From Octopus vulgaris (lineage: Eukaryota), in contig OX597835.1 in NCBI GenBank assembly GCA_951406725.2, forward strand, positions 27,528,001-27,592,000: 64,000 nucleotides of DNA, written 5' to 3'. Under the pieces are notes generated by a model. It did no database searches. It saw only the letters and a program-made list of their open reading frames with translations, and was not told the origin of the DNA. Shown here piece after piece: positions 907-49,010 of this stretch; position 1 is the stretch's first letter, and each line of letters begins with the position of its first letter. Made by a program: the position numbers and the translations under genes.

Positions 907-945
<39 letters not shown>

Positions 946-3044: not shown

Positions 3045-3262
3045 TAAGGCGGTGAGCTGGCAGAATCGTTAGCATGCCGGGCGAAATGCTTAGCGGCCTT
3101 TCACCTGTTGTTACGTTCTGGGTTCAAATTTTGCCGAGGTCGACTTTGCCTTTCATCCTTTTGGGGTCAATAAATTAAGTACCAGTGAAACACTGGGGTC
3201 AATGTAATCGACTAGTCCCCTCCCCCAAATTTCAGGCCTTGTGCTTATAGTAGAAAGGATTA
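3045..3262 (+). mobile_element. SINE family A copy; others ~50-257(-), 1255-1492(-), 2575-3020(+, two), 12188-12597(-, dimer), 16403-16492(+), 22685-22995(-), 27020-27222(-), 39170-39375(-), 49030-49465(-, two), 52765-52970(-)
   Basis: Shared head ggcggtgagctggcagaatcgttagc and shared central domain. Confidence 0.9.
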
Positions 3263-3469
3263 TTATTATTATTATTATTATTATAAAGAATAATGATTCC
3301 CTTCTGACGAATGTGATGTATTTCAATTGACCTCCTCCTCCAGCTTCCTCCTCCTCCAGCTTCCCTATAAGGGATGTTGTTGTTGTTTGTCTTATTGTTC
3401 TTAGATAGATGAAAGCATTAATTACAGATTCTTATTTGTCATGTTTCAAATCTGTTTAACTACCAATTA

Positions 3470-4035
3470 CCATCATCACTATAACCATCACCCCCACCAC
3501 AACCACTAGCCCCCTTACTACAATCACCGCCATCGCTGCCGTCACCACCACTACCACCACCACCACACTACCACCAAAGCAACCACTGCTGCCACGACCA
3601 CCACGATCACCACCATGACCACCGTCGCTGTCACCATCACCACCATCGCTGCCACGACGACCACCACTGTTACCACCAAAGCAACCACTGCCACCACGAC
3701 CACCACGATCACCACCATCGCTGCCACCACCACCACCATCGCTGCTACGACCACCACCACAGTTACCACCACAACCACCACCACACTACCACCAAAGCAA
3801 CCACTGCTGCCACGACCACCACGATCACCACCATGACCACCATCGCTGCCACCACCACCACCATCGCTGCCACCACCACCATCGCTGCCACCACCACCAC
3901 AACCACAACCACACTACCACCAAAGCAACCACTGCTGCCACGACCACCACTACTGCTACCATTGTCACCACCACTGTCATCATCATTATCATCACTACTA
4001 CCACCACCACCGCCACCACCACCACCACCACCACT
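3470..4035. repeat. (ACC)n-derived minisatellite with higher-order repeats
   Basis: Recurrent unit ccaccaaagcaaccactgctgccacgaccaccacgatcaccacc; source of the poly-Thr and poly-Val ORFs. Confidence 0.9.
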
Positions 4036-4489
4036 CCCACGTTTGTCCTAGCCAATGCATGGAATACGATGGTCATCGATGAAACAAAAACAAGAAAGAA
4101 ACAAGCAAGAGGAAACCAAACTGAAATCAAACCAAATATATTTCTTATTGCATGCGAACACGGCAGAGCTGCACCGAGCTTCAAAAGAAAACGGCCGGAG
4201 AATTTATAAGTTTATTGATATATTTATTCAGATCTATTTTACTCTCCTGAAGAGGGCACACTGTAGAAGCCACAGGTGAAAAGGGAGATCAAATGGATTG
4301 ATTTGTATTTCTGAAGATGTTCGCTGAAGATATAGTGAAGAGGAGGAGCTAGAGAAGGACACTTTATGTGGTCACCCAAGTTGCTAGAGAGTGCAACCAA
4401 ATCAGCATAATCTTCTTCTTACTCCTTCTCTTTCTTCTGCTTTCTCTCACTCTCTTTCTCCCTCCCTCTCCCCCAGAAACTTCCCTCTC

Positions 4490-4620
4490 ATCTATCTATC
4501 TAGCCATTCTATCCAGCTATCTATCTATCTATCTATCTATCTATCCATCCACCTAGCCATCTATCTGGCTGTCTATCTATCTACCTACCTACCTACGTAC
4601 CTACATTCCTACCTATCTAC

Positions 4621-4675
<55 letters not shown>

Positions 4676-4677
4676 CA

Positions 4678-4739
<62 letters not shown>

Positions 4740-4910
4740 CATACCTATCTATCTATCTATCTATCTACCAATCTATCTATCTAGCCATCTATATGGCTGT
4801 CTGTCTGTCTCTCTTTCTATCTGTCTATCTATTTATCCACCTATCTATCCATCCACCCATAAACAACCCACCCACCCATCCATCCATCCATCCATCTGTC
4901 CATCTATCAT
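4490..4910. repeat. (ATCT)n tetranucleotide microsatellite
   Basis: Direct inspection. Confidence 0.95.
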
Positions 4911-5073
4911 CTTTATAGATACAGTGAGAATGAGTAACCAACATCTCATTGGTGGCTAAATACTCTTTATTCTTTGATTAACAAGGTTACCATTGGGTTC
5001 TATGCAGAGAAATCTCAGCAATTACCAAGCCTGCCACGTAGGACAGTGATACTCATCACTATCTTGGAAGAGA

Positions 5074-5119
<46 letters not shown>

Positions 5120-7237
5120 GTAGAAAGATAGGTAGACAGACAGACAAATAGATAGAAATAGACAGATACATACACACACACACTGAAGCACACACAAACA
5201 CATACAAATGTGGTGCCTCTAATGGTTACAGCTATTATATTGGAGATAACACCATTTCTCCATAATTCAAAGCAGCATTAGAAATTCAAAATTGAAATTA
5301 AGGAAATCTAAGGAAAACCTTGCATAAAATTCACATACTTAATTATTTTTGTCTACCTAATATGAAGTCCTTAGAATTTCAAGTCTTTGGCAATCATGTG
5401 TAGCACTATTCCAATATATAGTATTCGATATTATTGCACTGAAATAAAACTGATAAAACAGTATATGTGTGGGCATGTGTGCGTGTTTGTGTTCCAAGTG
5501 GGGGCAAGTTCAAAAGAAGCTGTATCTGGCCTTAGAGTAAAGTTTTCAAAGATAAGCGCGAGAGTGTATGAAATATTTAATCCATAATGGTTAGTCTGAT
5601 AGAATATATTTTCACCTATGGGCAAAACAAATTATATTTTATTGGACTGTCATGGATTAAATATTTCATATAAATATATGCACACATATATATATATATA
5701 TACTCTTTTACTCTTTTACTTGTTTCAGTCATTTGACTGTGGCCATGCTGGGGCACCGCCTTTAATCGAGCAACTCAACCCCGGGACTTATTCTTTTCGT
5801 AAGCTCAGTATTTATTCTATCGGTCTCTTTTGCCGAACCACTAAGTAACGAAGACATAAACACACCAGCATCGGTTGTCAAGCAATGCTAGGGGGACAAA
5901 CACAGACACACAAATACACACATGCATATATGTATATATATACGACGGGCTTCTTTTCAGTTTCTGTCTACCAAATCCACTCACAAGGCTTTGGTCAGCC
6001 TGAGGCTATAGTAGAAGACACTTGCCCAAGGTGCCATGCAGTGGGACTGAACCCGGATGGAACCATGTAGTTGGGTTGTCCGCAAAGTTCGTATCGATTT
6101 TTAAAGGAAAGAAAGCAAGTTTCTTACCACACAGCAACTCCTGCGCTTACATATATATATATATATTTAAAAAATTAAAAAAAATTTTTTAAATTTTTTA
6201 TATATATATATATGTATGTATATACAGAGGCTATGACAAATGACTGAGGCCTTTGGCAATATGCTATGCTTGAGAAGGAAGGTCCATCAAGCCAAGTGAA
6301 ATTTTAGTTGTGACAGATACTGGTGTCATGCAAGTGGCATGTAAATGCATCCATTATACTCTCAGAGTGGTTGGCATTAGGAAGGGCATCTAGCTGTAGA
6401 AACCATGCCAAATCAGACTAGAATCTGGTGCAGCCCCTCAGCTTAGTAGTGCTGGTCAAACTGTCCAGCTCATGTTCGCATGGACAACAGACATTAAATG
6501 ATGATGATGATGATGATGATATACAAGTGCTAATTTCATACACATGCACACACACCCACACACACAGACGTTTTTAAAACATGTGGCTAATCTGATTCTC
6601 CCATGACATAACTGTTTCATTTACCAACCAATTACAAAGCAGGAAATAATAGTTCTTGCAGTGACCATATTCGACATCTGAGACGCCGATGACAGCAGAG
6701 AAGCTAAACGCTTGCGTTCCTGCGATCTGTGTCTGTCGTGTAGCACGGGCATGAGCTCAATTTCCGCTGAGTCAGATTAGTTGAGTGTAAGTAATTAATA
6801 AAGCGTTATTGATTTAATTAATTGTGTGTAGGTCTATGGCTATAAACGAACATTAGCCTAGCGGATATTGAAACAGAAATCAATAATTTGTTATAAACAC
6901 AAATATTGAGTAAGAAGAGATCAACTAAAACGATTACTTAAAATGTAAAATGTTGGAGATTATTTTATTAGTTTCCAGGAGTCAGACTGTGGCCATGCTG
7001 GGGCACTGCTGTCAAAGGTTTATTTTGCTCTTAGACAGACTACATTGTCGACGCTGTCGCCTCTAATCGTACAGCTCTGCTATTTATTTTATCAGCCTCG
7101 TGAGAAACAATAGACAAGATTTCTACATTGGTGTAAATGGAGATAATTCAAGTTTGACATTTACAGCGCAACAACGTATTCCTGCTTGATAAACTGTTTC
7201 TCTTCTCTCTCCCTATGGTGATAAATTCATGTGTACT

Positions 7238-7271
<34 letters not shown>

Positions 7272-7289
7272 TACAATACAATCATATAT

Positions 7290-7339
<50 letters not shown>

Positions 7340-8176
7340 GGCATAGGAGTGGCTGTGTGGTAAGTAGTTTGCTTACGAACCACATGGTTCTGGGTTCAGT
7401 CCCACTGCATGACACCTTGGGCAAGTGTCTTCTGCTATAGCCTCGGGCCAACCAAAGCCTTGTGAGTGGATTTGGTAGACAGAAACTGAAAGAAGCCCGT
7501 TGTCATCATCATCATCATCATCATCGTTTAACGTCCGTTTTCCGCGCTAGCACGGGTTGGACGGTTTCGACCGGGGTCTGGGGAGCTCGGGACTGCCCCA
7601 GGCTCCAATCTAGTCTGGCAGTGTTTCTACAGCTGGATGCCCTTCCTAACGCCAACCACTCCGCGAGTGTAGTGGGTGTTTTTTACGTGCCACCTGCACA
7701 GGTGCCAGAGGGGTCTGGCAACGGCCACGTTCGGATGGTGCTTTTTATGTGGGGGGGTGGTGCAGAAATATAGGGGAGCACCAGTGGGGAGGGGTGGTTC
7801 AGAGAAATGATGACAGGTTCTAGGCAAGTAGAACGTAGGATATCGAGAGAGGGGTAATGCATGGTGAAATAGCGTATTGAAGAGGGGGTTCGAAGAGTAG
7901 ACACCTATAATGGTGGTGGGAGAAGCGACATCCGGTATAGATGGAGCAAAATATAGAGATATCCAGTATTGGTGGTGGGGTGGGCAGGGCGGGTGAAGAT
8001 ACGAAGTTTGATTTTAGACGAATGAAGATAGATAGATAGATAGATAGAGAAATTAGATAGATAGAGAAATTTGATAAATAGTTAGACAGATAGAGAAACA
8101 TAAATAAATGGTAACCGAAGTGAAAATTAAGCATTCAACTTATCTGCACTCAGGACTACAGCTTGTAGATGAATGA

Positions 8177-8220
<44 letters not shown>

Positions 8221-8809
8221 ATATGTGTATTAGAGGGGACATACTTCAAGATGGCGCGAAGATACGAAGTTTGATTTTAGACGAATGTAGATAGATAGAT
8301 AGATAGATAGATAGAGAAATTAGATAGATAGAGAAATTTGATAAATAGTTAGACAGATAGAGAAACATAAGAGGGATTTGATAAATAGTTAGACAGATAG
8401 AGAAACATAAGAGGGAGTATCCGGTGTAGATGGTGAGAACAGTGTTCACCGGTATTGGTGGTGGGGGTGGGAGGGCGGGCGCACCGCGCATTGGGAGAAG
8501 ATGAGGTTTTAGGCGGCAGAAAAGAAGACAGGATTGAGATGAAATGCTTTGCGGTGTGTGAATAAGTTTTTGTATATATGTATATATATATATGTGTATG
8601 GTTGTGCGTTGTGTTTGCCCCCTCCCCCAACATCGCTTGACAACCGATGCTGGTGTGTTTACATCCCCGTAACTTAGCGGTTCGGCAAAAGAGACTGATA
8701 GAATAAGTACTAGGCTTACAAAGAATAAGTCCTGGGGTCGATTTCCTCGACTAAAGGTGGTGCTCCAGCATGGTCACAGTCAAATGACTGAAACAAGTAA
8801 ATGAAATGA

Positions 8810-8844
<35 letters not shown>

Positions 8845-8918
8845 TCGTCGCCATGAGAGATCGGTAGCTACTGCACACCTTTTTTCTCCCCTTGTTTCAG
8901 TCCTTGTTTTCTGTGTCC

Positions 8919-8954
8919 CTTTCTGTAGAAGAGCATAGGCTCGAAACGTAAAAG
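8919..8954 (+). ncRNA. minimal hammerhead-like motif with CUGUAGA core, inside a ~190-nt repeat (8845-9038)
   Basis: CTTT CTGTAGA A GAGC-atag-GCTC GAAAC GTA^ AAAG. Stems I and II are perfect and the junction ACGT is palindromic. Core position 6 is non-canonical (U). Confidence 0.6.
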
Positions 8955-9568
8955 ACTTTTTCAATTCCTGAGCGTTATACTAATACATTGTTTGTTTTCC
9001 ACACCACCTGTCTTCATCTTGTGTTTTTTGATGAATTCTGTGTGCGTGTGTGTGTGTGTGCTTGCATGTGTCCATGTATATACAATTGTGTGTGCGTATG
9101 TATGAGCGTTTGTCGTGTGGGTGTGGGTTCATTTGCATGTGCATGTGTGTGTATGTGTGTTCATGTGCATATATGTGTGTGCGAGTGAATGCATGTGCGT
9201 GTCTACATGTGTGTATATGTATATATGTGTATGTGAGAGAGTGTGTGTATATATGTGTGTGTGTGTATATGTATATATGTGTATATATATATATGTGTGT
9301 GTGTGTGTGTATCCATCATGCGAAACTGTTAATCCTGACATATCTGTTCTTTTTCTCTCTCCATTTTTTTTTTCACCTGTCATCCCTTTCTGTTGAAGAG
9401 TGTTGGCTAAAACCATCAAACTAAAGACACCTATGTCTTCTTTCCTCACCTGTCTTCTTAGCCTTTTGTTTTCCGTACACAGAGTTCATGGTGAGGTAAA
9501 CAACAACGAAGGTATCAAGTGTTGATAGGAAACTATAAAGATGTAAGTACCAAATTTATATATATATA

Positions 9569-10065
9569 TCATCATCATCGTTTAACGTCCGCTTTCCATG
9601 CTAGCATGGGTTGGACGATTTGACTGAAGACTGGCAAACCAGATGGCTGCACCAGGCTCCAATCTGATCTGGCAGAGTTTCTACAGCTGGATGCCCTTCC
9701 TAATGCCAACAACTTTGAGAGTGTAGTGGGTGCTTTTACGTGCCACCGGCATAAGGGCCAGTCAGGTGGTACTGGCAACAGCCACGCTCAAATGGCGTTT
9801 TTTATGTGCCACCTGCACAGGAGCCAGTCCAGTGGAACTGGCAATGACCTTGCTTGCTCGAATGTTTTTTCATGTGCCACCAGCACAAGTGCCAGTAAGG
9901 CAACACTGGTAACGATCACGTTCAAATGGTGCTTTTTATGTGCCACTGGCACGGAAGCCAGTTAGCCACTCTAGCAACAATCACACTTAGACGGTGCTCT
10001 TAGTGCTCCACTGGCACGGATGCCAGTCATCGAATTTGATATCGATTTCACAGGTCTTCGCAAGC
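9569..10065 (-). mobile_element. retroposon family C with (GAT)n tail (RTE-type 3' end); others ~1082-1250, 2075-2280, 6300-6520, 7503-7750, 21432-21680, 41772-42015, 55180-55320, 58150-58462, 61858-62145
   Basis: Shared catcatcatcgtttaacgtccgctttccatgctagcatgggttggacg...ctggatgcccttcctaacgccaaccactc; internal repeats gcttttacgtgccaccggcac. Confidence 0.85.
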
Positions 10066-10194
10066 ACATGTATATATTTATATATATATACCAGAGTAAG
10101 CACATAAATGTGTAACAAGGTGGAAAAAAGAGTACTCAAATACCAGGGGTAGAGTAATATGCTTTATTTAAAAGCAGCAGAAAATATAACAAAA

Positions 10195-10236
10195 GCCTAT
10201 TACTCAGAGTTTCATGTTCCCGTTCATCGGACAGCA
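10195..10236 (-). ncRNA. degenerate copy of the same hammerhead family, within repeat 10090-10235
   Basis: Minus strand CTGT CCGATGA ACG-ggaa-CAT GAAAC tctga GTA ATAG, with single lesions in stems I and II. Its flank is homologous to 18780-18893. Confidence 0.55.
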
Positions 10237-10822
10237 GTTTGTCGTCACAAGAGTATCTCCTTCACTTGTGAAAGTGTAAACAATCGGCACCGTTTAAACT
10301 TTACTTTAATAAGGTCAATCAATAATCCAATGACGAAGTGATTTCACAACAGCACAATCTGGTAACGGGGTATTATTGTTGTTGTTGTTATTATTATTAT
10401 TATTATTGTTATTCATATATATATATTTAATTATGTATGAAAGCATTATTCTATGCTAATTTAGTTTAATTTTGTCAAGTCCCTCTTCAGTTTGCAAGAT
10501 CCAAATATAAATGTAATAAAATGTTTTATATTTTAATTATAAAAACTTTTGTGCCACCCTGTACATACAACTTATTCACACACACACACGCTACATTTAC
10601 ATTGTTATATGTATTTTGTCAAGCTCCCTCTTCAGTTTGTAAGATGTAGAATATTGTATGTAATGTAATAAATGTATGTTGTTGTGTGTGTGAATTCCCA
10701 CTTGTGAGAAAAAAGAGCTAGCGACTGAGTATTCCAAAGAAAGGCATGCGATGTATCTTTAACCCTTTTGACACTAACCATTCCTGGGATTGCTCTTGGT
10801 TCTATAAGACAAACTTCCTGTC

Positions 10823-10857
<35 letters not shown>

Positions 10858-13224
10858 CAGATAGTTAGATAGACAGATAGATAAACAAATAGATAGTGAA
10901 TTACACAGCTTTGCTTATTCTTCCTTTTCTAAAAGGGTGAATAATTAGAATAAAGTGAGGCAATTTATTCTTGAGTGAGACTACTGCGAGAGAATCATGA
11001 AGAATGTGAAAGAGTGAGAAAGAGAATAGTTCAACGAAAGACAATGTAAATAATTAGATGAAAGCAAAAACAATGAAATCAAATTAAAAACTGTGCGTTC
11101 AGTTTGACTTGTTGATATAATATATTCTTATACAACAGCAGTTTGTCGTCACAAGAGTATCTCCTTCACTTGTGAAAGTGTAAACAATCGGCACCGTTTA
11201 AACTTTACTTTAATAAGGTCAATCAATAATCCAATGACGAAGTGATTTCACAACAGCACAATCTGGTAACGGGGTATTATTGTTGTTGTTGTTATTATTA
11301 TTATTATTATTGTTATTATTATTGTCATGATGGCTTTTTGGGCTTTTGTTGCACTCATGGAGAATAAACAAAATTATTTGAGAGATCTATTGAGTTTTTT
11401 TTTACCACAGTGCATTGATTTCTAACATAAGCACAAGACACCAACCACCACCACCACCACCATCACCACCACCACCACCACCCGGCACTACCTCTACACA
11501 ATAAAATTTTGGTTGGGGCGGTGAAGGTTATAGTGGGTAGGATGGTGAATTCTGTGATGGTTTCAACGATGAACATTCTGTTGTTTTGAACAAGTGAATT
11601 CCCACTTGTGAGAAAAAAGAGCTAGCGACTGAGTATTCCAAAGAAAGGCATGCGATGTATCTTTAACCCTTTTGACACTAACCATTCCTGGGATTGCTCT
11701 TGGTTCTATAAGACAAACTTCCTGTCTTAAAGTGCTCTAATTTAAAACCTTCAATTAAAATTTCCTGTTTACTTATGTATCAAAGATGTTCTACTAAAGG
11801 CACAAGGCCTGAAATTTGGGTGGGGAAGGACTGGTTGATTACATCGACCCCAGTATTTTACTGGTATTTAATTTATTGATCCTGAAATTATATTTCAACA
11901 GAAACTTAGTAAAAAAAAGTTTAAAGAGAAGAGAGGAGGAAATTAAAGTATGAAGAAAAGGAGGGCTTCCAAAGAGTTTCCGCATGTGAATTTCACTCAC
12001 AAAGCTTCAGTCGTCCCCAGGCTATGGCAAAATACACTTGTCAAACTGGATGAGATAGAACTTGGGAACTCCTGGTAACAAAGTGACCTATGCATTCACA
12101 CAGCTGTAGATGAAGCTGGACATGCATACAAACATATAAAGATATGCAAATGTATACAGGTAAAATAGATAGATATATACATATACATTTCTTTACTACC
12201 CACAAGGGGCTAATCACAGAGATGACAAACAAGGACAGACAAATGGATTAAGTCAATTATATTGACCCCAGTGCGGAACTGGTATTTATTTAATCGACCC
12301 CGAAATGATGAAAGGCAAAGTCAACCTCGGCGGAATTTGAACTCAGAACACAACGGCAAACGAAATACCTATTTCTTTACTACCCACAAGGGGCTATACA
12401 CAGAGAAGACAAACAAGGACAGACAAATGGATTAAGTCGATTATATCGACCCCAGTGCGTAACTGGTACTTATTTAATCAACCCCAAAAGGATGAAAGGC
12501 AAAGTCCACCTCGGTGGAATTTGAACTCAGAACGTAATGGCAGACGAAATACGGCTATGCATTTCGCCCTGCGTGCTAACGATTCTGCCAGGTCGCCACA
12601 TGCATAAATGTTGCATGGTTGCGTTGTCAGTGACTAAACAGGAAACCCCACTGAGCTTGTTTGGTGGGGAGGGTGATTGTTGGACACCCTGGGGGACAGA
12701 AAATAAAACATATCAAAGAGCAGAGTAACACATGAACAGCCAACGGTCATCCAACAATATGTACATATGTATATACAGTTTTTATTTTATTCTGTTTATA
12801 TTTTATTTTTATATCATCATCATCACCATTTAATATTTGTTCTCCATGCTGGCATGGGTTGGACGGTTTGACAGGGACTGGGTGGCCAGAAGACTGCGTC
12901 AGCTTTCACTGTCTGTTTTGGCAGGGTTTTCAAACAGTTGGATACTCTTCACAACACCAACCATCACATCCTTAGGTTTACATATCTTTATCTGAGTAAT
13001 ATTTGAAAATATTTTCACTATATTTATTTGCATCATGCTAGCATGGAAGGTGGATGTTAAATGATGATGATGATGATTATATATATACATACACACACAC
13101 AGACATACACACATATATATAGGGTGGATGGGTTTCCTTAGCTGCGGTGAAGGCAACACATCTAGAAGAGGGAAACTCTGATATAAAACCAAGTCTCTGA
13201 CTACTAAGGATCCCTTTACATACA

Positions 13225-13238
13225 TATACATAATACAT

Positions 13239-13269
<31 letters not shown>

Positions 13270-13579
13270 CATGCATACATACATACATATATACATATAT
13301 ATACATGCATACATATATACATACATACATACATGTATATATATATACATATATATATATACATGCATACATATATACATACATATATATACATGCATAC
13401 ATATATACATACATACATGTATATATATACATATATATATATATACATGCATACATATATACATACATACATGTATATATATACATATATATATATATAC
13501 ATGCATACATATATACATACATACATGTATATATATACATATATATATATACATGCATACATATATACATACATACATG

Positions 13580-13642
<63 letters not shown>

Positions 13643-13690
13643 GTATGTGTGAGTGTATGTGTATATGTACATATATGCACACACATGAAT
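13225..13690. repeat. TA/CA minisatellite, ~50-bp unit
   Basis: Repeated acatgcatacatatatacatacatacatgtatatatatacatatatatat. Confidence 0.9.
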
Positions 13691-13967
13691 ATGAATATTG
13701 GTAGAGAGAGAGAGAGAGAAAGAGAGTTGTTATAAGTCAAAGAAGGACAGAAGAAGCAACTAATTAATTAATTAATTATATCAGACACTGCAAGATTAGG
13801 TCCCAGAGATGAGATGAAATGAAACTGGGTGAAACATTAGTGTACTTTACGGTTCCACCCTCCACCACCACCACCCCACATGCATCACGTAGCAATAAGA
13901 ATGCTTAACCAGTGACGATGATGATGATGACAATGACGATACTGATGATGATCACGCTGCTTTTGCC

Positions 13968-14004
<37 letters not shown>

Positions 14005-14063
14005 GGTGAAAAAGAGGAGAAATTCAAAAATATGAAAAAAAAGAATAAAATAATAAAAATATA

Positions 14064-14109
<46 letters not shown>

Positions 14110-14199
14110 ATTAATATTATTATTTTTGACATGTCAAATAGAGATTTTCTTATTAGAACACGTTAACTGGTTTCAGCATTGTTGCGATACGTAAGAACA

Positions 14200-15300
14200 C
14201 ACACACATTTCCACACACACACATATATGTATTCATACATACAATACATATATGTGCACTCACACACATACATGCACTTTTACACAAATGCACACATTCA
14301 CAAGTATACAAGCACTCTTATACATATATAGCTATACTAATGTGCACATACACACACACAGACATATGCACATTCATACATACAGACATGCACATATCTA
14401 CACATATACATGTATTCATACATACATGCAAATGCACATGTGTGTGCATGCATGTATGTACGTGTACTCACATGCACAGGCACACACACATATTCAAATT
14501 TGATTGCACACATGTACTCACACATGCATGTGCACACACACACACACACACACTAATGCACACAACACACATACATACACAGGCATACACATACGCCTCA
14601 TGCGAACACTCACACACATGCACACACATACACACATTCAAATTTACATGCACACATCCACATATACATGTACGTACATGTACTCTCACACACACACGCA
14701 TACACTTACATGCATACACATGCACATATATATATATATACACATTCAAATTCACATGCATATACCCACATGTATATACTTATACTCACACACACGCATA
14801 CATATTTACATGCGTACATGTAGATATGCCTCATGTGAGCACACACAGGCACACACAGGCACACACAACACACACAGGCACACACAACACACACAGGCAC
14901 ACACACACATACACACACTTAATGCTACATATGGATATACCTCATGCAAGCACACACACACATACACACATATTTAATGAATGCATATAGATATACCTCA
15001 TGTGAATACACACATACACACACACACACATACATACACACACACGTACACACAAACACACACACACACATTTAATGATACATATGGATATATCTCATGT
15101 GAGCACACACACACATACACACACACACATTTAACGAATGCATATAGATATACCTCATGTGAATACACACATATACATACACACAAAAACACGCACGCAC
15201 GCACACACACATACACACACATTTAATGAATGCATATAGATATACCTCACGTGAGAGCACACATGCACACGCACACACACACACTCACACACACATTTCC
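14200..15300. repeat. CA-rich degenerate minisatellite; similar array at 26830-27870
   Basis: Recurrent atttaatgaatgcatatagatatacctcatgtgagcacac units among (CA)n. Confidence 0.85.
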
Positions 15301-15791
15301 AACAACAAAACAAAGACAACTGCTTTATTTCTTGAAAGCTAATTCCTTTCTCGCCACAATTTGAACAAAACAACAACAGCTGTAGCTGTCAACATTAGTT
15401 TTATCTGGAATTATGCAATTTATCTCTGGAATATATAATAGGATTAGGACATGAATATATATTCACACACAAACACACAGACAGACACACACACACACAC
15501 ACATACAGACACACATACAGACACACATATGCCTAAACATAAATATATATACACTCACATCTACATGTGTACACACATGCACATACATACTTATATGTAT
15601 GCACACCCATACACACGTGTATAGATATATATCAAAAACTGTCAGTTGACGTTAATAAATTGTTGGATGAACAAAGGAATATTGGAACAGAAGACAAAAA
15701 CCTGAAGACATCGGTGTTTCGGTCATTTTTCACAAAATGTGAAAGCTTTTACTTACAGGAATTGATCAAACTTTCATTGCTGATGTTGTTG

Positions 15792-15794
<3 letters not shown>

Positions 15795-15835
<41 letters not shown>

Positions 15836-16347
15836 GAGTGAGAGAGCAGTGCATGCCATCAAAGTGACACTGGGGTAAAATATACGAAGTCCAGTATACC
15901 CATCATGACTACCCGTCTGATAAGGGTACACTAGGCACATGCATCACAACCATATGTGTACGACATGGTGATCTCATAACAAGATAAATAGCACATGACC
16001 TTGCAGGTGGGGCCCAGTTAGAATTTTCTTCTGGTTGGGTAACCCATCCCATTCAAAAGGTCCCTGATTAAGGGTTGTCTAAGGATGTTGAATGAAACAC
16101 CCATGTTTCCAGAGGTGAATTATTCAAACCCCAAAGAATCCCTCTCAACACATGGCTATGATGCTCCCCCACTACTTCTGCTCATGATCAGAGATGCACA
16201 TATCGTCAGCCACTAAGGGACATGCTCAACTGGTTAAGGTCAAACGACTCACAAGCAAATCTATGGTACTGAGCAGAATATTTGCTGTAGCCCATCTTTT
16301 ATACGTAGCCCATCTTTTATACATAGCCCATCTTTTATATGTAGCCC

Positions 16348-16350
<3 letters not shown>
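15795..16350 (-). mobile_element. retroelement 3' end with (AAT)n tail; short copy at 944-1080(+)
   Basis: 15837-15945 is the reverse complement of 944-1052; both end in (AAT)n. Confidence 0.75.
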
Positions 16351-16386
<36 letters not shown>

Positions 16387-17601
16387 CATCATCATTATTA
16401 TTAAGGCAGTGAGCTGGCAGAATTGTTAGCATGCTGGACAAAATGCTTAGCGGTATTTTGCCCGTTGCTATATTCTGAGTTCAAATTCCGCCAAATGTGT
16501 AGAAAAGGTGAACAAAGTGAGTAGAAAAGGTGAGTGAATAGAATGAGTAGCTGAGTAGGGGGATTGAAGTGAGTAAAATGAACAAGCAGAATGACTGAGT
16601 AAAATTACTAATTGAGTAGAATAAGAGAGTGGAATGAGTAGGTGGGCAGAATGAGCATGTAAAGTAGATAACTGTGTAGAATGAGTAGGTAAAATGAGCA
16701 ACTGAAAGGAATAACTGAGTGGCATGTGCAAAACAAGTAGTTGAGTAATGAGTAAGTAAAATGTGTAAATGAGTAGAAAAAGTAGTAAAATGGAATTGTT
16801 TAGAGAATGAATAACATAATGGCTTAAACCATATGAAAATATTTAGTTTTGTAACAGAGCTGTGTCATAAAATACTATTTCGTTTGATAAATTAATAGTC
16901 AGTTTTATGACAGAGCAGTGTTATAAAAAAAACCATTTAAATATCGTTAGTAAAAGAGACAAGCTCAACACAAGAGTACTGTTTTTAAAAAAAAAAGAAA
17001 AAGAGAAATATTCTGTTCAAACAAAATAATAGAAATCGAGCTAAAAACAAAAACTGAAACAAATAATAAAAAAAAAAACAGAAAAGAAAACGAACCAAAT
17101 TTAAACAAATAAGACACTGAATTAATTAAATCTTCCAAAATAATATTGAATTCCTTCAATTTCAGATTATCTGCTAATTAGATATGAAGAGAAGACTGAT
17201 TCCAAGTTAGATGCCAAACAGACACAAATCTGGTGAGCAGTTAGGTGGTTGACACACATTTAACATAATTTCGCATCCATTAGTTATTTTATTTTAATTT
17301 TCTATTTCAATTTACAATAAACTAGAAAGTTCTAGAAATCCACAAATTCTTGTCAGTTTACTGAATAAATCATTCTATGACAACTGGTGTACAATATTCT
17401 ATATTTCCTTACTAATTCTTCCATTACTGCATTGGTTGGTATAGTGAAGGTCATAGTATGTTGATGAGGTCATAATAACGCTGAAAGATGGCAAGAGTTG
17501 ACTTCCATATTTGTTGAAATAATAACAAAAATAATGTCAGTCCTTGACTATTATTGTTTATTTTTTTTCTCACAGCATAATTATTTCTGATTAGCTTTAC
17601 A

Positions 17602-17747
17602 TATCTCTATATATATAAACGGCAAAATGTCTGTCTGTGTGTGTGTCCTTTATACAAATCCACAATTTTTCAGTTAGAGGGCTTGCACTTTCTATGATCA
17701 TTTAAAACCGTCCAAGGATGGTCGTGCACATCTTTACATTTCCCCAC
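17602..17747 (+). mobile_element. possible non-autonomous Helitron 5' fragment
   Basis: Begins atctctatatatataaacggcaaaatgtctgtctgtgtgtgtgtcc, a TC-start plus microsatellite layout typical of such elements. No 3' CTRR end seen. Confidence 0.35.
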
Positions 17748-17768
17748 TCAGGAAAGGAAAGAAAGAGG

Positions 17769-17803
17769 ATTTAACATTTCGAGCGGACCTCTTCGTCAGA
17801 AAC
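17769..17803 (-). ncRNA. minimal hammerhead-like motif, third family (repeat ~17750-17878)
   Basis: Minus strand GTTT CTGACGA A GAG-gtccg-CTC GAAAT GTT^ AAAT. Canonical CUGANGA core with short stems I and II. Confidence 0.55.
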
Positions 17804-17877
17804 ATAAGAAAAGGAAAGATTCGAGGAAGGGAAGACGGAGATAAAAAAAAATCGCCAACGGTACACACGCGGTCATA

Positions 17878-17937
<60 letters not shown>

Positions 17938-18349
17938 ACAATATCCAACATAAGTAGTTAGAAAAATATATACACATTTAAGACCTAATATCTGGCTTCG
18001 GTAATTAGGAAAATGTACATGCAATAATTTCATGAATTTTTGAGCTTACTTTTTAGCATTTAAACTGGCCATATCTAGCCAAAATAGTCCACCTGTTAAA
18101 AATTAGCCAAATCAAGCCTCCTGCATCTACTCTACAATGTCTCTGTAAAAATAAGCGACCACCACATTGAAATTTCGAAGCAATGATATAATGCACAATT
18201 AATTCCAAGCAATCAGAATACATATACATTTCATTGGACAGAGTAATCTGAATGCCAATGGGTTGATAATTAATTGATTAATTACTGAATAAACATAAAA
18301 TGTGGATTAACATGGAGGATTACTGGGCTGAATTCAAAGGTAAACTTAC

Positions 18350-18456
18350 CCGTAATGGCAATTTTAGCTGACCATTTCGAAGTTCCATCAAGCACACTCT
18401 GTTTCACAGCTTTCATATGACCTGAATGTGATTTCTTATCAACACCAAAAACTTGC
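18350..18456 (-). CDS. unc-13: unc-13 exon entering the C2B domain (107 nt, phase 2-1): [35 protein letters not shown]
   Basis: Munc13 hallmark [19 protein letters not shown]. Acceptor ttttag|, donor |gtaagt. The next C2B exon was not found in 1-18349, so that intron apparently runs off the window. Confidence 0.96.
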
Positions 18457-21892: not shown

Positions 21893-22013
21893 CGGATAAG
21901 CTCAAATATTTCAGGTTTATTCTTTTCGCGTGCTTTCATTCTATCTTTCATTGCCATGATTATATTATGGGTTTTATCTTCAGCTCCATGCTTGGAGCTT
22001 TTTTCAGCAGCCC
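21893..22013 (-). CDS. unc-13: unc-13 exon, C1-C2B linker (121 nt, phase 1-2): (R)[39 protein letters not shown](R)
   Basis: Absent from the ORF track in this frame; translated by hand. Acceptor tttacag|, donor |gtaaga. Phases match both neighbours. Carries the Munc13 motif [13 protein letters not shown]. Confidence 0.96.
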
Positions 22014-23723: not shown

Positions 23724-24554
23724 GTACGTATGTGTGTGTATATATATATATAGATGTGTGTATGTATGTATATATATATATGTATGTGTGTGTATATATA
23801 TATATATGAATGTGTATATATATATATGTCTATTTATGTATGTGTATATATATATGTGTGTGTATTTCTATATGTATGTATGTATGTGTATCTATATCTC
23901 TCTCTTTCTATACATATATATATATATATATATATACACACATGATATAGATATATTTCGTTTCTCATCAGATATCTAATGAGAACTTTTCTTCTACTTA
24001 ACCTATATTAATAGTTGGAAGGAAATCTTCCCGTCGGATAACTTTAAAGTAATTTCAAGTAAAATACTTCACAGAAGAAATTCTTGTAAAAGAAATACAA
24101 ATAAATTGGCAACAGTAGTTTTCTGTAAATTAGTAGCAAGAATGGTGTAAGCAGCTTGGAACAGAACATTTTGCAGATCAAAGGGAACAAGATCAGAGGG
24201 ATAGAATAGAAATAGTTATTTTCTTGACAATGTTACGTAGTTCAGCCACCTCTGCCATTTCCCTCTTCTTAAGTAATAATTAAGTAGTTTGGACCGATAG
24301 CAAATGATTTTACTTGAGATCTTAATACTTTGGGGCTCGGCTCATAGTCAGAAATCACAGATTTTTAGCACTCAAGTAGTAATGGCAAAAGATTTCAAGA
24401 ACAGACTTATTCATCAGAAGAGCGACCAGTTTATCATTGAGAAGGGGCAAGACTGGTAAACTAATTTCTCAACAAAAATAAATAAATAAAAATGTTATCG
24501 TAGAGTGGGTTCAAGTTTCATGCCAATGTATGACACCTTGGGGTGTAAGTTACA

Positions 24555-24985
24555 CTTGAAATCTTCAAAGCCACAATCGAACCAATTCTACTATGTGGTT
24601 CAGAAACCTGGACGTTATCAAAGAAGAGGCGGTTGGATGGAACTTACACTCGCCTCCTTATGAGAGCTCAAAATCTCTCGTGGAAGCGTCATCCAACCAA
24701 AATGCAAATATATGGGAAACTACCACCTTTGTCATCTCTTGTGAAAGGTAGGAGAGTCCAGTTTGCTGGACATTGTTGTAGAGTTGAAAACGAGACAATT
24801 TCTACTCTTCTCCTCTAGAAGCCATCTACTCACAATACCAGAGGGCACACACTCTCCTACATAATCTCTGGGGATACAGGCATCCAGCAACAGGACCTCC
24901 GTAATGCTATGATGGACCGTGAAGTCTGGCATAGCATGGTAAATTCCATTGTCTTGACCACGGTCGAACAATGATGATGATGATG
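24555..24985 (+). mobile_element. RTE-clade LINE 3' fragment, same family as 48124-48705
   Basis: IFKATIEPILLCGSETWTLSK...DGTYTRLLMRAQNLSWKRHPTK...VQFAGHC; (GAT)n tail. Confidence 0.9.
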
Positions 24986-30492: not shown

Positions 30493-30589
30493 AGAAATCT
30501 TTAGAAGTTAACGAATAGATTCCTGCATGAAAATACATATTGAAGAAAAAAAAAGAAAGAAAAACATCTTTTATGTTTTTAATACTCAC

Positions 30590-30809
30590 TTTGTAGGCAA
30601 TCTGCGTTAAGCAGATCTTTGCATTTTTCATGGCATTTCACTCCACATTCTGTGCAACGAACACCCTGCCGTGCTAAACCCCACAACAACCCCTCACATT
30701 CAAAACAATATGTAGGGGATGTTGCTGTCCAGACAACAAAGTTATGGGGGGTTGTGCTGGATATGGGATAGATTAAGGCTTGCAGAGTTTTCTTGTAAAC
30801 ATGCATTTT
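30590..30809 (-). CDS. unc-13: unc-13 exon encoding the DAG/phorbol-ester-binding C1 domain (220 nt, phase 0-1)
   Basis: [73 protein letters not shown] has exact H-x12-C-x2-C-x13-C-x2-C-x4-H-x2-C-x7-C spacing and closely matches Munc13. Acceptor tttag|, donor |gtgagt. Confidence 0.98.
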
Positions 30810-31275
30810 CTAAATAATAATAAAAAGAAAGAAAGAAAAATTAGATAATTAAAAAGATTTTTAATTAGATTTGAAGTATATTTCATGAGTAAACAATGAA
30901 ATAACTTTTAAAATATATTCTAGAGATACATTTAATCACTTATGGCCATATCTGACCCAAATATTCTACCTGTTTTATATTCAAACTAGTCAGATCCAAC
31001 TTCTCACTCCTACCCTACAATGTCATTCTACATGTAAATAATCATAGCATTAAAATCTTGAATCTATAAAATAATGCATGATTAATAAAAAAGAAACAAT
31101 GTGAATAAATAAACATTACATTCCAGAGAATAATCTGAATGCTAAATGGTTAAAAAAAGGTAGTTTGGATCATGGAAAGAGGGTCAGTCTAAGGTGGGTT
31201 AGTATTAAAAGGGTTGAACAGAAAGATGCAATTGTCAACCAATCACAACTTTTGATATTTCTTACTTGATATATA

Positions 31276-31842
31276 CACTACCGTCAGAAATTAATTAGCA
31301 CCCTTGATTTGCTCACCATGAAGCATGGTGGGGGTGGTCTGATGGTGTGAGGGGCGTTCAGCTACAGTGGTGTTGGGCGGCTCTATGCCGTCGAAGGCAA
31401 CATCAACGCAGCAAAGTACATTGAGATAGTACGGGATACCTCTTTGGTGGCGAGGAGTACGTGCTGGCCAGTCACCTGACCTGAACCCTATTGAGAACCT
31501 CTGGAGTCGATTGGGTAGGGATTTGAATGTACAGCAATACAGGAACCAACACGAGCTGTTTGGGGCACTTCTTGCTGCATGAGGGGCCATCCCTGCACAG
31601 TACCTGCAGGCACTCATAGACAGCATGCCGACCCGCATAGCAGCTGTCATTGCTGCCAAAGGAGGAGCAACAAGATATTGACTAAATTTCACGATTAATA
31701 ACAATTATGTGGTGTGCTGGGATATGTTTTAATAAATTTTTGATTAAAAACGAGTTCGTTTCTGATAATAAGTTAATTAAATTAAGAAAATGTAAGAAAA
31801 TGTAGAAATTTGAGAAGTGCTAATTAATTTCCGACGCAAGTG
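31276..31842 (+). mobile_element. internally deleted Tc1-family DNA transposon
   Basis: 26-bp TIRs (CACTACCGTCAGAAATTAATTAGCAC / GTGCTAATTAATTTCCGACGCAAGTG) and TA target duplication. Relic peptides KHGGGGLMV*GAFSYSGVGRL, SPDLNPIENLW and LIDSMPTRIAAVIAAKGGATRY*. Confidence 0.95.
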
Positions 31843-32389
31843 TATTATTTAAAATAACAAAATTAGAGTACATTAGATGGCATAAGTAGGAATGTAACAG
31901 ATTAGATAGTTGTATCATAGAATCAGGGTCAGTCTAGGGTGGGTTGGTGTTAAAAGGGTTAAACAGAAAAATGCTATTGTCAACCAATCACAACTTTCGA
32001 TATTTCTTACTTGATATATATTATTTGAAATAGCAAAATTAGAGTACATTAGATGGTATAAGTAGGAAAGCACCAGACTAGATACATCATGCTATCATAT
32101 TTGGAAAGTTTTACATTTCTGTGCTCAACTGAATATATCTAACCCAAATATACTACCTATTTAATGAAACTGGCCAGATTCAGCCTCATACACCTACCCT
32201 ACAATGTCATGCTAAAAATAAACGGTCACATCATTGAATTCTCAAAGCTATGATATAATACATTGTTAATTCAAAATGATATAGATAAATATGTATTACA
32301 TTTGACAGAGTAATGCGTATGTTATGAAACAATGTTTAAAATAAATGGATAAAGGAATGAATAAAAGACTGCCTGTCAGGGAAACTTAC

Positions 32390-32467
32390 CAATTCTTCAT
32401 CATTTAATGACTGGCGAGCAACCATGGCTGATGGAACTCCTGCATTGCGTTTTGACGCAACCATTGT
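32390..32467 (-). CDS. unc-13: unc-13/Munc13 exon (78 nt, phase 0-0): TMVASKRNAGVPSAMVARQSLNDEEL
   Basis: Acceptor tttcag| at 32468-9 and donor |gtaagt at 32389. The peptide matches the segment preceding the UNC-13 C1 domain (recalled Drosophila TMAATKRNAGLTSA...LNDEEL). It joins the next exon in frame. Confidence 0.95.
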
Positions 32468-34991
32468 CTGAAATAATATTTCAGAGAATTTAATAACAAT
32501 TTCAAAATACCATGTTAAAGCAAGATTGTGAATAAAGTGAGATAGTTTCAAAGAATTAATGAGTTCTTTTGGGGTTTTTTTTATGAATCTAGCAGTAATA
32601 ATTAAAATTCATGTCTTTAGAGTGGATGATTAAAAACACAGCTGCATTTGATTATTATTATTATTATTATATTTTTTTGGTGGGGAATAGTACCTCTTGA
32701 AGCACATGAAGCAATGAAACAATAACATGTAAATATTTGGTCGAAAAACCTTTTTGAATAGCAAATGTTGAAGGTTGCTGGGCAGCCAATATTTACATAC
32801 TATTATTTATAGCTTTATGGGCTCCGAGATCCATTGTTCCAAAAGTAATTATTTCACATTCTCTTGAAAGTTTATAAATTCTTATGATGTCAACAACAGC
32901 TGTATTTATTTTATTTTATTTTGCAATGACTTTTATGAAGAGTAGAGTTGTCTGGAACTTGTTTCCAAGGGGTCAATCACTGGTTCACTGCACACGGCTT
33001 TTACAATAGCAAGAATGACAAGGGACTTTGTCTGTACAACACAGACAGATCAAATATGTGTATTACTGGTATATTAGTGTGGTAACGAAATTTGCTCAGG
33101 GGGTGCAAACCCAGGTCCATAAATATTTCACAAGCAAGGCTGGTTTTTAAAATCTTTATATCAAAAATGCACCAACATGGACTTCTTTCAGTTTCTACTC
33201 ACAAAGCTTCGGTCAGCTCAAGGGGCATAGCAGAAGAAACTTGCCTAAGGAGACTATAGTAGAAGGAACTTGCCCAGTACCACGTCATTCAGAAGCAAGC
33301 TTCTTACCACACAGCTACATCTGTGCCTGTTTCAAATCAATCTAAAAATGTTTGTATGGTTATTCATTTTGGTGAGGAAGCTTTTCAGAAGGCTATTCAA
33401 AGTATTTTCATCTCCACTCCAAGAATTAATGCAGGTGTGCTTGCACTCTCTGCACCTCCTGTTCCAGAGCCTGTGTACTAGTATCACGGATTCCAGTACA
33501 AGATGACACACGGTCATGTCATCAGTGACTAAACTTGCATTCCAACCAGAATTATAAACAAGACCGCTGCAAAGGATGGATGAAATCAGTGTAGGTTCAA
33601 TGACTACCTACAAATAGCATGAGCACCCAGAAATTCCTGGTTGGCGTCTGGACCACTGGGAGTGAGGCACCCCTCAGCTTTTATTAAAATGGGTTTCTAG
33701 GAGGTCACTCTGATATAAACCCAGATATGCAGGGAATGGCATTGGGAACTTTGGTGATCTCTTGCTTGCAGTTGACATCATGGCACTCATGCATTCCTGA
33801 GCCTGCAACCCAAAATTATAAATATCATTGATCTCTACTATGATATTGAGTACTTATTCTTCTGGCAGTCAACATTAAACACACACACACACAGATTACA
33901 TCTAACCTGAAGGACTTTGCTTTTGCTATCCAAGAAGTGGAAATGATCCAACAGATATGAAAATTAATTATATATGTGTATGTGTATGTGAGAGTGTGTG
34001 TGTATAAATGTGTATATATGTGTGTGTGTGTGTGTAAAATAACTAATTAACAAGTAATACATTTTTTTTATTAATTTTAAGAAATAGACTTAAATTCAAA
34101 TTACATATAAAAAAAATACACTCCCAAAATAATTATGTTATAAAAGCAATTAATTCAAAGAGTTTTAATTATAACACTGCCTTGTCTCTTGACTCATATT
34201 TTCTGCTGATTCAACAAAAGCAGGTTGATCTAGCTTACTTTTTCAGTGTGCTGACACCAAATAAGAGGTCACCATTTGCTTATCATGTCAAATTGTTTTA
34301 CAAAAACAAAAAAAAAATCATAATTACATTTCTGAGAGATTTTATATACTAACACAGATAACAGTTCAATAATAACAAGGTGAGTATTGATCAGCTAGAA
34401 AATGCAATAAAACAAATGCAACTGCTCCATGGAGTTAATTTAGATAAAACGATCCAGCATGTTTGCATTACTTGATCTTTGGGAATATTGATTTTCATGT
34501 CAGAAATTTCCTCAAGATGAACCAAGTGGACTAATTGCAATGGAGGCAAGTTATTTACATTGTGCAGTAAAACGTATTTTAAACTTTCCTTTGAACTAGC
34601 GATAAATACCCACAACTACTCAGTCGAAAGATATTCACATCCCATTGCTTAAAAAAGAAAAAAATCCTTTTGATGTTATAAGGGTAAATAGAGGAAAAAG
34701 AAGAACCCACTACCAAACAGACAACATTTCTTTCAGCTTTAATAAACAGCAAAAAGTATGTTTTGACTATTATTGCTAAATAAAAGTTTTCCTCAAAGTA
34801 CCAACATCATATATATATATATATCTATATATATATATATATATGCTGCCTTAGATGAAGAGACAGTGATGAGTGAAAATTCTGTAAATAATGATAATTA
34901 TAAGCTTTAAGCTTATAAACATTCATTGAGCATTGACTAAAGAAAATAGTCTCCTGGGGAATATAAGCCCTCAACGGGAAAAATGTAGGCA

Positions 34992-42974: not shown

Positions 42975-43315
42975 TGTGAAAGTGCATGGCTCAGTGGTTA
43001 GAGTGCTGGGCTCACAATCATGACGTAGTGAGTTCAATTCCTGGACCAGGCTGTGCGATGTAATCTTGAGCAAGACACTTTATTTCATGCTGCTCTATTT
43101 CACTCAGCTGTAGAAATGGGTTGTGATGTCACTGGTGCCAAGCTGTATCGTTCTTTGCCTTTCCCTTGGATAAATAACATCGATGGCATGCAAAGAAGAG
43201 GCTGGTATGTATGAGTGACTACTGGTTATCCATAAACTACCTTGCCTGCACTTGTGCCTCAGAAGGGAACTTTCATGGTCCTTCATGACGGAAGGGGGTC
43301 TTTACCCTTTTTATG
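42975..43315 (+). mobile_element. tRNA-derived SINE (fifth family); second copy ~29415-29790(-)
   Basis: A box TGGCTCAGTGG, B box GAGTTCAATTCC, core cttgagcaagacactttatttcatg shared with the 29.6-kb copy. Confidence 0.8.
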
Positions 43316-43757
43316 TATTAATAAAACATTACAACAAAGAATCCCAATACCACAACTTCAGATATTAAGTCCTTATTCTTGTTAGGTTTAAACAGCCAAG
43401 ATTATTTCCTGGTTAAGTTTTAAAGAAAACAAATTTAAATTACAAGGCATGTATTTAGTTAAATATGAGTACTGCAGTTAAATAAAAATGGGCATCAGCA
43501 AAAAAATTAGTTGTGCAATTACAGAAAAAAATATATGTAAAGATGCAATATATGTTAAGATGAAAAGAATAAAGAAAATTTGATTACAGTTTTGGTAAGT
43601 GCACAAGAGAATTAGAGGCAAAAATAAACAACGAAAACACTATATGGTCAAAGACCATTCCATGTTAAAAAAGAGGAAAAAAAAAGTGCTTAGCTATATA
43701 TATATAATAAGAAGAATTAAAAAAATTGCATGTATGGAAAGGAGTAATTATAAATAC

Positions 43758-43766
43758 CTTCATGAC
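43758..43766 (-). CDS. unc-13: 9-nt microexon GTC ATG AAG (VMK), phase 0-0
   Basis: Minus strand reads atttttatctttcatttttaccag|GTCATGAAG|gtattt. It preserves frame and lies upstream of the TMVAS exon. It parallels the recalled optional VLK in insect Unc13 (IPLVSEL-VLK-TMAATK). Confidence 0.75.
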
Positions 43767-43987
43767 CTGGTAAAAATGAAAGATAAAAATATTGTAATAT
43801 GTAATCTTGATAACGACTCAGATAATTAGGAATTGGAACAACAAAATCTTATATAATTTTTTAGTTAAGTTTTGATATTACTTTTTTCTTTTGCAACTAT
43901 TATAAATATACGTGTGTGAGTATGCATGTATATATATATATATACATACACTTGTAAATGTGTGTATATATATATATACACTTGTAA

Positions 43988-47899: not shown

Positions 47900-49010
47900 A
47901 GAATCTAATTCTTCATGTTCTACAGATCTAGTTGCTTCAAAATATTACAGTAGAACTCTCGATCGACAGTGTGGCCATGGGAGATGAATTCTTGATGGAC
48001 AATACCACATTTCCACGGGTGATGCTCATAGCAGGTCTTCCAGGTTGTTCATCATCTTCCAGGGGTGTTCTTCTGCTTTTGAAATGCCTGTGCCACTCAA
48101 AACATTGCGTATGATCCATTGCCTCATCATCATCATCATCATCATTGTTTGACCGTGGTTGAGACAATGGAATTTACTATGTTACACCAGACTTCACGGT
48201 CCATCATAGCATTACGAAGGTCCTGTTGCTAGATGCCTATATCCCTGGAGATTATATCAGAGTAAGAGAGTGTGCGCCCTCTGGTATCGTGAGTAGATGG
48301 CTTCTAGAGGAGAAGAGTAGAAATTACCTAGTTTTCAGCTCTACAGCAATGTCCAGCAAACTGGACTCTCCTACCTTTCACAAGAGATGATACAAGTGGT
48401 AGTTTCCCATATATTTGTACTTTGGTTGGATGACACTTCCACGAGAGATTTTGAGCTCTCATAAGGAGGCGAGTGTAGGTTCCATCCAACTGCCTCTCAA
48501 GCTTCTTTGATAATGTCCAGATTTCTGAGCCGCATAGTAGAATTGGTTTGACTGTGGCTTTGAAGATTTTAAGTTTGAAGTCTCTACTTAGATTTGATGA
48601 CCAGATCTTATGCATGTCATTACAGGCTGGCCAGGCCATACCCTTTCTAGTTAGAAAATCTTTTTCAGATGATGATATGTATGACCCAAGATATTTGTAA
48701 TCAGAAGCTATATTGCTTCATCCCCGTAAGCTTGCAGAAGCATGCTCAATGTCTCTGTAGCAGACTTCCCAAGTTTAACACAAAATTTCACATTGGCTTT
48801 TTGTTCCTGCCCATGACCAAATCACAGACTACAGCACACACGTGATAACAAAAACACAAATTTCACAACTTGCAAAGTAAACACAGCGATGTCACTCAGT
48901 ACACTGCCTGATGGAGGTCACTGCTAGCTCTCACTGCACACACAACCATTTGCTGCCATCTGTTGGTATGCAACAGAACTAGTCTAGGAAAGTTTTGATA
49001 CTACTTCACA
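47900..49010 (-). mobile_element. mariner transposase relic (N-terminal HTH region) interrupted by an RTE LINE fragment
   Basis: EQKANVKFCVKLGKSATETLSMLLQAYGDEA (48712-48805) continues as DEAMDHTQCFEWHRHFKSRRTPLEDDEQPGRP below 48128. Outer boundaries approximate. Confidence 0.85.
48124..48705 (-). mobile_element. 5'-truncated RTE-clade LINE 3' end
   Basis: YKYLGSYISSSEKDFLTRKGMAWPACNDMHKIWSSNLSRDFKLKIFKATVKPILLCGSEIWTL; (GAT)n tail; imperfect TSD attgcctcatc / attgcttcatc. Confidence 0.9.

Follow-up and report, generated by a model that had tools for sequence, protein, structure and literature searches.

The unc-13 locus and its nine-nucleotide exon

The window analysed here comprises 64,000 nucleotides of Octopus vulgaris DNA (contig OX597835.1 of assembly GCA_951406725.2, positions 27,528,001 to 27,592,000 of the forward strand), and all coordinates below count from its first letter. 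Four exons of unc-13, the gene of a synaptic release protein, are located on its minus strand. The first, a 78-nt exon encoding TMVAS...DEEL (32390-32467), is 100% identical to cephalopod proteins, has phase 0 at both its start (32467) and its end (32390), and is the acceptor partner of the microexon described below. It is followed by a 220-nt exon (30590-30809) for helix H1 and the C1 domain, with 73 of 73 residues identical to cephalopod Unc13, by a 121-nt exon (21893-22013) for the linker between C1 and C2B, and by a 107-nt exon (18350-18456) on the approach to C2B, the last two likewise matching cephalopod Unc13. Within exon bounds the four exons are 97.5-100% identical to cephalopod Unc13, which identifies the gene as UNC-13/Munc13 of the neuronal type. 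They match three Octopus species in full and are one residue off Argonauta and Sepia. The unc-13 exon upstream of the microexon lies outside the window, at least 20,234 nt from it, and the introns flanking the microexon measure 11 kb downstream and more than 20 kb upstream. No next unc-13 exon was found on the minus strand in 1-18349, and that intron is therefore also longer than 18 kb.

Contigs from runs X4 and X6, presumed to represent RNA, show the TMVAS exon spliced to that for C1 in a comparison that covered 30500-32700, a stretch without the microexon. The contig of run X6 departs from the window sequence precisely at the acceptor, 32467, and has 93 letters more. The X4 and X6 contigs probably come from a relative, as 4 letters differ in the C1 exon. 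Contigs of runs X3 and X4 extend into the intron 5' of the TMVAS exon (32468-32519, minus strand), and that of X4, spliced downstream yet retaining the upstream intron, resembles partly spliced RNA. Intronic frames at 48331-48717 (minus), 24549-24971 (plus) and 31430-31579 (plus) bear a likeness to what we take to be decayed tails of LINE reverse transcriptases and a piece of a Tc1/mariner transposase.

The microexon is a phase-0 cassette of 9 nt at 43758-43766, identified by its sequence, by its rank among candidates and by the presence of VMK in octopus protein records. Read on the minus strand from 43766 to 43758, it consists of GTCATGAAG, encoding V-M-K, directly preceded by cag and followed by gtattt. 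The acceptor (43767-43789) combines this CAG with a polypyrimidine tract, in which 17 of the 20 bases 5' of the CAG are pyrimidines and the next AG occurs only at -41. The GTATTT donor (43752-43757) is weak, scoring 1.35 on our own approximate splice-site matrix against 4.10 and 3.77 for two downstream constitutive donors. A CTAAT at -63 (43825-43829) is a doubtful candidate for the branch point, because AGs at -52 and -41 separate it from the acceptor. With AG/GT flanks, a length within 27 nt and a preserved reading frame, the element has the properties of a cassette microexon. It is in frame with the TMVAS exon 11,290 nt downstream; on the upstream side its phase is taken from protein records, the upstream constitutive exon (...VSDL) being outside the window. 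As the phase is 0 at both ends, inclusion or skipping leaves the frame intact. The pyrimidine tract with CAG, the nine coding nucleotides and the GTATTT donor of the original prediction are all present, on the minus strand, and its phase match with the TMVAS exon some 11 kb away holds at 11,290 nt and phase 0.

Candidates were ranked with our own approximate splice-site matrix over the 31.5 kb of unc-13 intron within the window (32468-64000). The microexon is first among 68 open AG-9nt-GT candidates (9.12, with the runner-up at 3.47) and first among 889 open in-frame candidates of 3-51 nt, where the next score is 8.58. The latter score, close to 9.12, belongs to an 18-nt candidate at 36975-36958 (minus strand), to which no insert in the protein records compared corresponds. 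Under a first-order Markov model of 32468-64000, 0.005 AG-VMK-GT sites and 0.066 AG-V[LMIV]K-GT sites are expected by chance, and one site is observed; a single AG-V-x-K-GT site exists in the 31.5 kb of intron inside the window. Other copies of the microexon 9-mer, at 43289 (minus) and 978 (plus), have neither a preceding AG nor a following GT. A VLK-coding 9-mer at 51041 was rejected, being preceded by AG but not followed by GT after 9 nt. The repeat-free island in which the exon had been said to lie does exist (43237-43891, 28% GC), but it is not distinctive, as one of 16 self-match-free stretches of at least 300 nt in 32468-64000; with 15 further such stretches, it was dropped as evidence for the microexon.

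RefSeq models lean on RNA-seq. In those of Octopus sinensis, VMK is found at the microexon junction in three of five isoforms (XP_036368120.1, XP_036368121.1 and XP_036368122.1) and skipped in two. Among isoforms X1 to X5 (XP_036368120.1 to XP_036368124.1), X3 contains VMK alone, X1 and X2 contain VMK after longer inserts, and X4 and X5 have no insert. The O. bimaculoides protein UVH70864.1 has a 9-residue insert and then VMK at the same junction. VMK is absent from the protein models compared of O. vulgaris (two), Argonauta (one) and Sepia (five). The claim that gene predictors would miss the exon consequently stands for these last three and fails for RefSeq O. sinensis, whose included and skipped forms, though predicted, agree with the proposal of an optional VMK exon in unc-13. 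VMK is almost certainly a real optional exon of octopus unc-13, its inclusion being known from predicted models.

The octopus models also contain other optional inserts before VMK, namely 10 residues, with or without VVK, in O. sinensis and a different set of 9 residues in O. bimaculoides. When these were sought in the window, the best matches had 5 mismatches in 10 and 4 in 9, and no VVK with a splice flank was found. VVK could represent either another 9-nt exon or a lengthening of the 10-residue exon at its donor. At 1226-1242 residues the O. sinensis models are short, and the two that were checked start 28 residues before the conserved linker and do not possess the calmodulin-site-like upstream helix of the long forms, which may reflect an alternative start or an assembly gap.

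Inserts at the same junction in other animals

The junction was surveyed in 221 named records that were labelled, of which 205 were scorable, from 55 taxa. The remaining 16 were left out as fragments, as records with the upstream part missing, or as hagfish records missed by the pattern. The survey drew on at most 15 members per cluster, and absence from protein models is a weak observation. A V-[L/M/I]-[K/Q] insert is present in 14 of the 55 scored taxa, which include three mollusc classes, a brachiopod, crustaceans and insects, and in all carriers it is located between VS[DE]L and the TM/SM exon of the protein records. The conservation in molluscs that had been predicted is seen in 8 of 40 mollusc taxa scored: VMK in two octopuses, Pomacea, Candidula and Mactra, VLK in Haliotis rufescens and Gigantopelta, and VIK in Mizuhopecten. 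The brachiopod Lingula possesses VMQ, single or doubled. Arthropods carry a V-x-K/Q insert in 5 of 12 scored taxa, and the wasp Copidosoma, in addition to the 55 taxa, has VLK at the junction. VLK-type inserts are distributed amongst Lepidoptera, Coleoptera and Hymenoptera in the records and Diptera from papers, along with decapods; the insect VLK of the original prediction is found at this junction in records of both insects and crustaceans. Included and skipped forms occur together within O. sinensis, Pomacea, Mizuhopecten, Lingula, Penaeus and Photinus.

The insert is missing in 41 of the 55 scored taxa. Isoform-rich sets also lack V-x-K/Q in the records listed, namely Mya (0 of 13), Dreissena (0 of 14), Patella vulgata (0 of 10) and Biomphalaria glabrata (0 of 8), as do one annelid taxon (0 of 3 records), one nemertean (0 of 1) and the one myriapod scored. 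Several molluscs possess unrelated inserts of 4-23 residues at the junction, each confined to one lineage. The spiralian examples comprise inserts of 8 and 15 residues in abalone, 5 in Dreissena, 9 in Mercenaria, 4 in Mizuhopecten and 13 in Mytilus, a pattern that marks the junction as an insertion hotspot in spiralians. The next junction, before the C1 exon, contains small inserts in Littorina (3 residues) and a mayfly (8 residues), which are perhaps shifted splice sites.

A short optional insert before C1 had also been put forward for vertebrate Munc13-1, and vertebrate records contain one, AM or VM, at the same junction. Among 119 records, taken from the best 120 of 586 matches to an AM-carrying hagfish query (which biases the share of AM) and vertebrate where named, the insert is AM in 51, VM in 3, VQ or VR in 9 and lacking in 44, with 12 unscored. 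VQ or VR is perhaps donor read-through. The hagfish record has AM at the junction, and in hagfish two different upstream exons lead into this one junction, one of them with AM. Some turtle and carp records have VM rather than AM, which corresponds to VMK minus its final residue. Of 10 entries looked up from a set of 50% representatives in which 49 junctions were compared, none was identified as an invertebrate deuterostome.

Descent of the exon

Two counterparts have been described. In C. elegans, unc-13 contains a 9-nt VLK exon between the calmodulin (CaM) site and C1 (PMC12287369), and in Drosophila a 9-nt unc-13 exon, DmeEX0010016, is listed as eMIC-dependent (PMC8797185). The exon type is known from worm and fly and VMK is already in RefSeq models of a congener, so its presence in octopus is no surprise. 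Common descent is suggested by the same junction, the same length and the same V-hydrophobic-K/Q pattern. Position and phase agree in the protein records, with the downstream phase also read in the window, the exon has 9 nt, and VMK is aligned with VLK. On this sequence evidence the octopus exon is quite probably orthologous to the VLK microexon, with one protostome origin followed by losses or missed annotation. The existence of a spiralian V-x-K exon at the shared junction shifts the likely origin to the protostome ancestor. It also bears on the late origin proposed for the fly exon in PMC8797185, which is weakened by records of wasp, beetle, moth and shrimp that carry the insert.

Convergence at a tolerant linker hotspot, with separate origins for spiralian VMK, for the VLK of arthropods and nematodes and for vertebrate AM, is the less likely account. 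It is the reading preferred in PMC8797185 for the fly and mouse unc-13 exons, where the 9-nt fly exon and the 6-nt mouse exon occupy a shared position and are interpreted as convergent, the exon not having been found in all other insects studied. According to a 20-species preprint that includes octopus (10.64898/2026.09.05.749416), neural exons commonly recur, and the patchy presence of the insert (14 of 55 taxa) and the many unrelated mollusc inserts at the junction are both consistent with repeated gain. The latter are, however, each bound to a single lineage, whereas inserts alike in length and pattern are found in nematodes (from the published work), four insect orders, decapods, three mollusc classes and a brachiopod. 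The likeness of the inserts could in principle follow from the preference of acceptors for G as the first exon base and of donors for AG at the exon end. Splice-site bias accounts for little of it, since a rough model gives V-[LMI]-[KQ] a frequency of about 0.008 per independent 9-nt exon, and hence per origin, although convergence could be made more likely by selection at the protein level.

The word ancient in the original prediction is probably apt for protostomes and less certainly so for bilaterians as a whole. A bolder proposal, possible but put forward here only tentatively, dates the exon to the last common bilaterian ancestor. The vertebrate AM/VM would then be a trimmed descendant of V-M-K, and the exon would be a third ancestral neural microexon beside those of APBB and MADD, the only ones considered confidently ancestral in the same preprint (10.64898/2026.09.05.749416), from whose main text unc-13 is missing. 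Molluscs would further stack optional mini-exons that set the length of the UNC-13 linker synapse by synapse. The stack in question consists, in molluscs and the brachiopod, of 9, 10 and 3+3 residues in octopus, 8 and 15 in abalone, 4-13 in bivalves and the doubled VMQ of Lingula. PMC12287369 describes the Unc13b exon as apparently unrelated to that of the worm and locates an exon of Unc13c at exactly the worm's position.

Regulation, proposed mechanism and known counterparts

Regulation of the worm exon has been described in PMC12287369, whose main text contains neither "mollus" nor "octopus". The VLK exon is included in motor neurons and left out in olfactory neurons, and its inclusion is promoted by the ELAV-type EXC-7, the muscleblind-type MBL-1 and PRP-40, which they recruit (PMC12287369). 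Forced skipping reduces inhibitory transmission, and the authors speculate that inclusion corresponds to higher activity (PMC12287369). Among the matches listed in our literature search, whose coverage of subscription journals was slight, no paper concerned a mollusc unc-13 microexon.

By analogy with these systems, the VMK exon is likely to be neurally regulated in octopus and has a somewhat better than even chance of measurably affecting release there. It is improbable that an exon so real and so old would have no neuron-type regulation in octopus, being included at a steady or low level with release unaffected. Such a reading would fit the absence of the canonical upstream UGC and of the worm's exact motifs. 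Targets of eMIC are enriched for UGC upstream of the acceptor, and fly eMIC exons are flanked by short introns (PMC8797185). In octopus no TGC occurs within 128 nt 5' of the acceptor, the nearest upstream being at -129, and the element thus does not possess the UGC close to the acceptor that characterizes eMIC/SRRM3/4 targets, a feature that is enriched and not obligatory. It resembles such targets in its long pyrimidine tract, AG-free zone and weak donor, with 17 of 20 pyrimidines, the next AG at -41 and a donor of 1.35 compared with 3.8-4.1. The exact EXC-7 and MBL-1 motifs of the worm were not found in the 500 nt downstream of the microexon, where generic YGCY occurs four times and U-rich runs three times. 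The U-rich downstream intron at 43438-43757 (minus strand) contains nine TGC where 3.8 are expected, four of them YGCY; these are possible regulator sites, the signal being weak and noticed post hoc. Against an unregulated exon stand the regulation of, and need for, the worm counterpart (PMC12287369), the eMIC dependence of the fly counterpart (PMC8797185) and the preservation of the frame across phyla.

Two further readings concern the splicing event itself. A recursive-splicing ratchet, in which AG/GT at the exon start removes a very long intron stepwise and leaves VMK as a by-product, is very unlikely; the exon does open with GT, in an intron more than 31 kb long, but the regenerated donor scores between -1.3 and -7.7 (all six Leu codons) compared with 1.35 for the real donor, and the VMK-type peptide is conserved. 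Chance intron sequence or a pseudo-exon, with the VMK of the database models encoded elsewhere, would draw on the location of the upstream exon and at least 20 kb of upstream intron outside the window, and is still more improbable in view of the expectation and first rank given above and of a peptide identical to models of two congeners.

The best explanation, held with reasonable though not high confidence, is that VMK is orthologous to the VLK of worm and fly, neuronally regulated and tuning release through the linker before C1. The sequence supplies a frame-neutral cassette with a strong acceptor and a weak donor, and database models of two Octopus species comprise forms with the exon and forms that skip it. 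Descent is probably shared with the arthropod and nematode VLK. As in worm and fly, the exon would be skipped by default, and its inclusion in neurons would need helpers and vary between neuron types. Candidate helpers are an eMIC-bearing Srrm234, as in the fly, and an ELAV-type EXC-7 with a muscleblind-type MBL-1 recruiting PRP-40, as in the worm. The three residues, placed between the calmodulin site and helix H1, would lengthen the linker before C1. They would likely alter how far the upstream calmodulin region extends on the core or in which register it lies, and the insert may thereby modify the restraint that the N-terminal regulatory region exerts on the C1-C2B-MUN core and so tune transmitter release. 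The solved 5UE8 construct starts 8 residues after the end of the insert, and helix H1 is reported to pack on the MUN domain (PMC11991699). An AlphaFold model of the Candidula VMK protein places a short helix over the insert and was not used, its mean pLDDT being 42.6, with values below 50 for residues 1-212. For cephalopod neurobiology, VMK is a candidate presynaptic tuning switch that is missing from the O. vulgaris, Argonauta and Sepia models compared.

Among known systems, the vertebrate Unc13a/b microexons resemble the octopus exon as optional inserts at the same protein junction, and differ in having 6 nt rather than 9 and in missing the final K. The mouse Unc13a/b microexons of 6 nt, MmuEX0050589 and MmuEX0050598, are eMIC-dependent (PMC8797185), and AM may be the product of the exons with these VastDB identifiers. 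RefSeq O. sinensis X1-X5 already model VMK as optional at the junction; they are predictions without remark on homology or regulation, and the inserts of X1 and X2 are not encoded in the window. The C. elegans VLK microexon shares with that of octopus the gene, the length of 9 nt, the preserved frame, the interval between CaM site and C1, the V-x-K pattern and optional use. Octopus differs in having M for L, introns of 11 kb and more than 20 kb, extra optional inserts stacked at the junction, and no exact EXC-7/MBL-1 motifs downstream. Regulation and function are experimental for the worm exon, whereas for octopus they are proposed from sequence and analogy. Drosophila DmeEX0010016 and the octopus exon have in common the 9 nt, a weak donor, a long pyrimidine tract and an AG-free zone; the octopus exon differs in having no UGC near the acceptor, an acceptor that is strong rather than weak (own matrix) and long flanking introns. 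Finally, other insects possess VLK at the junction where octopus has VMK.
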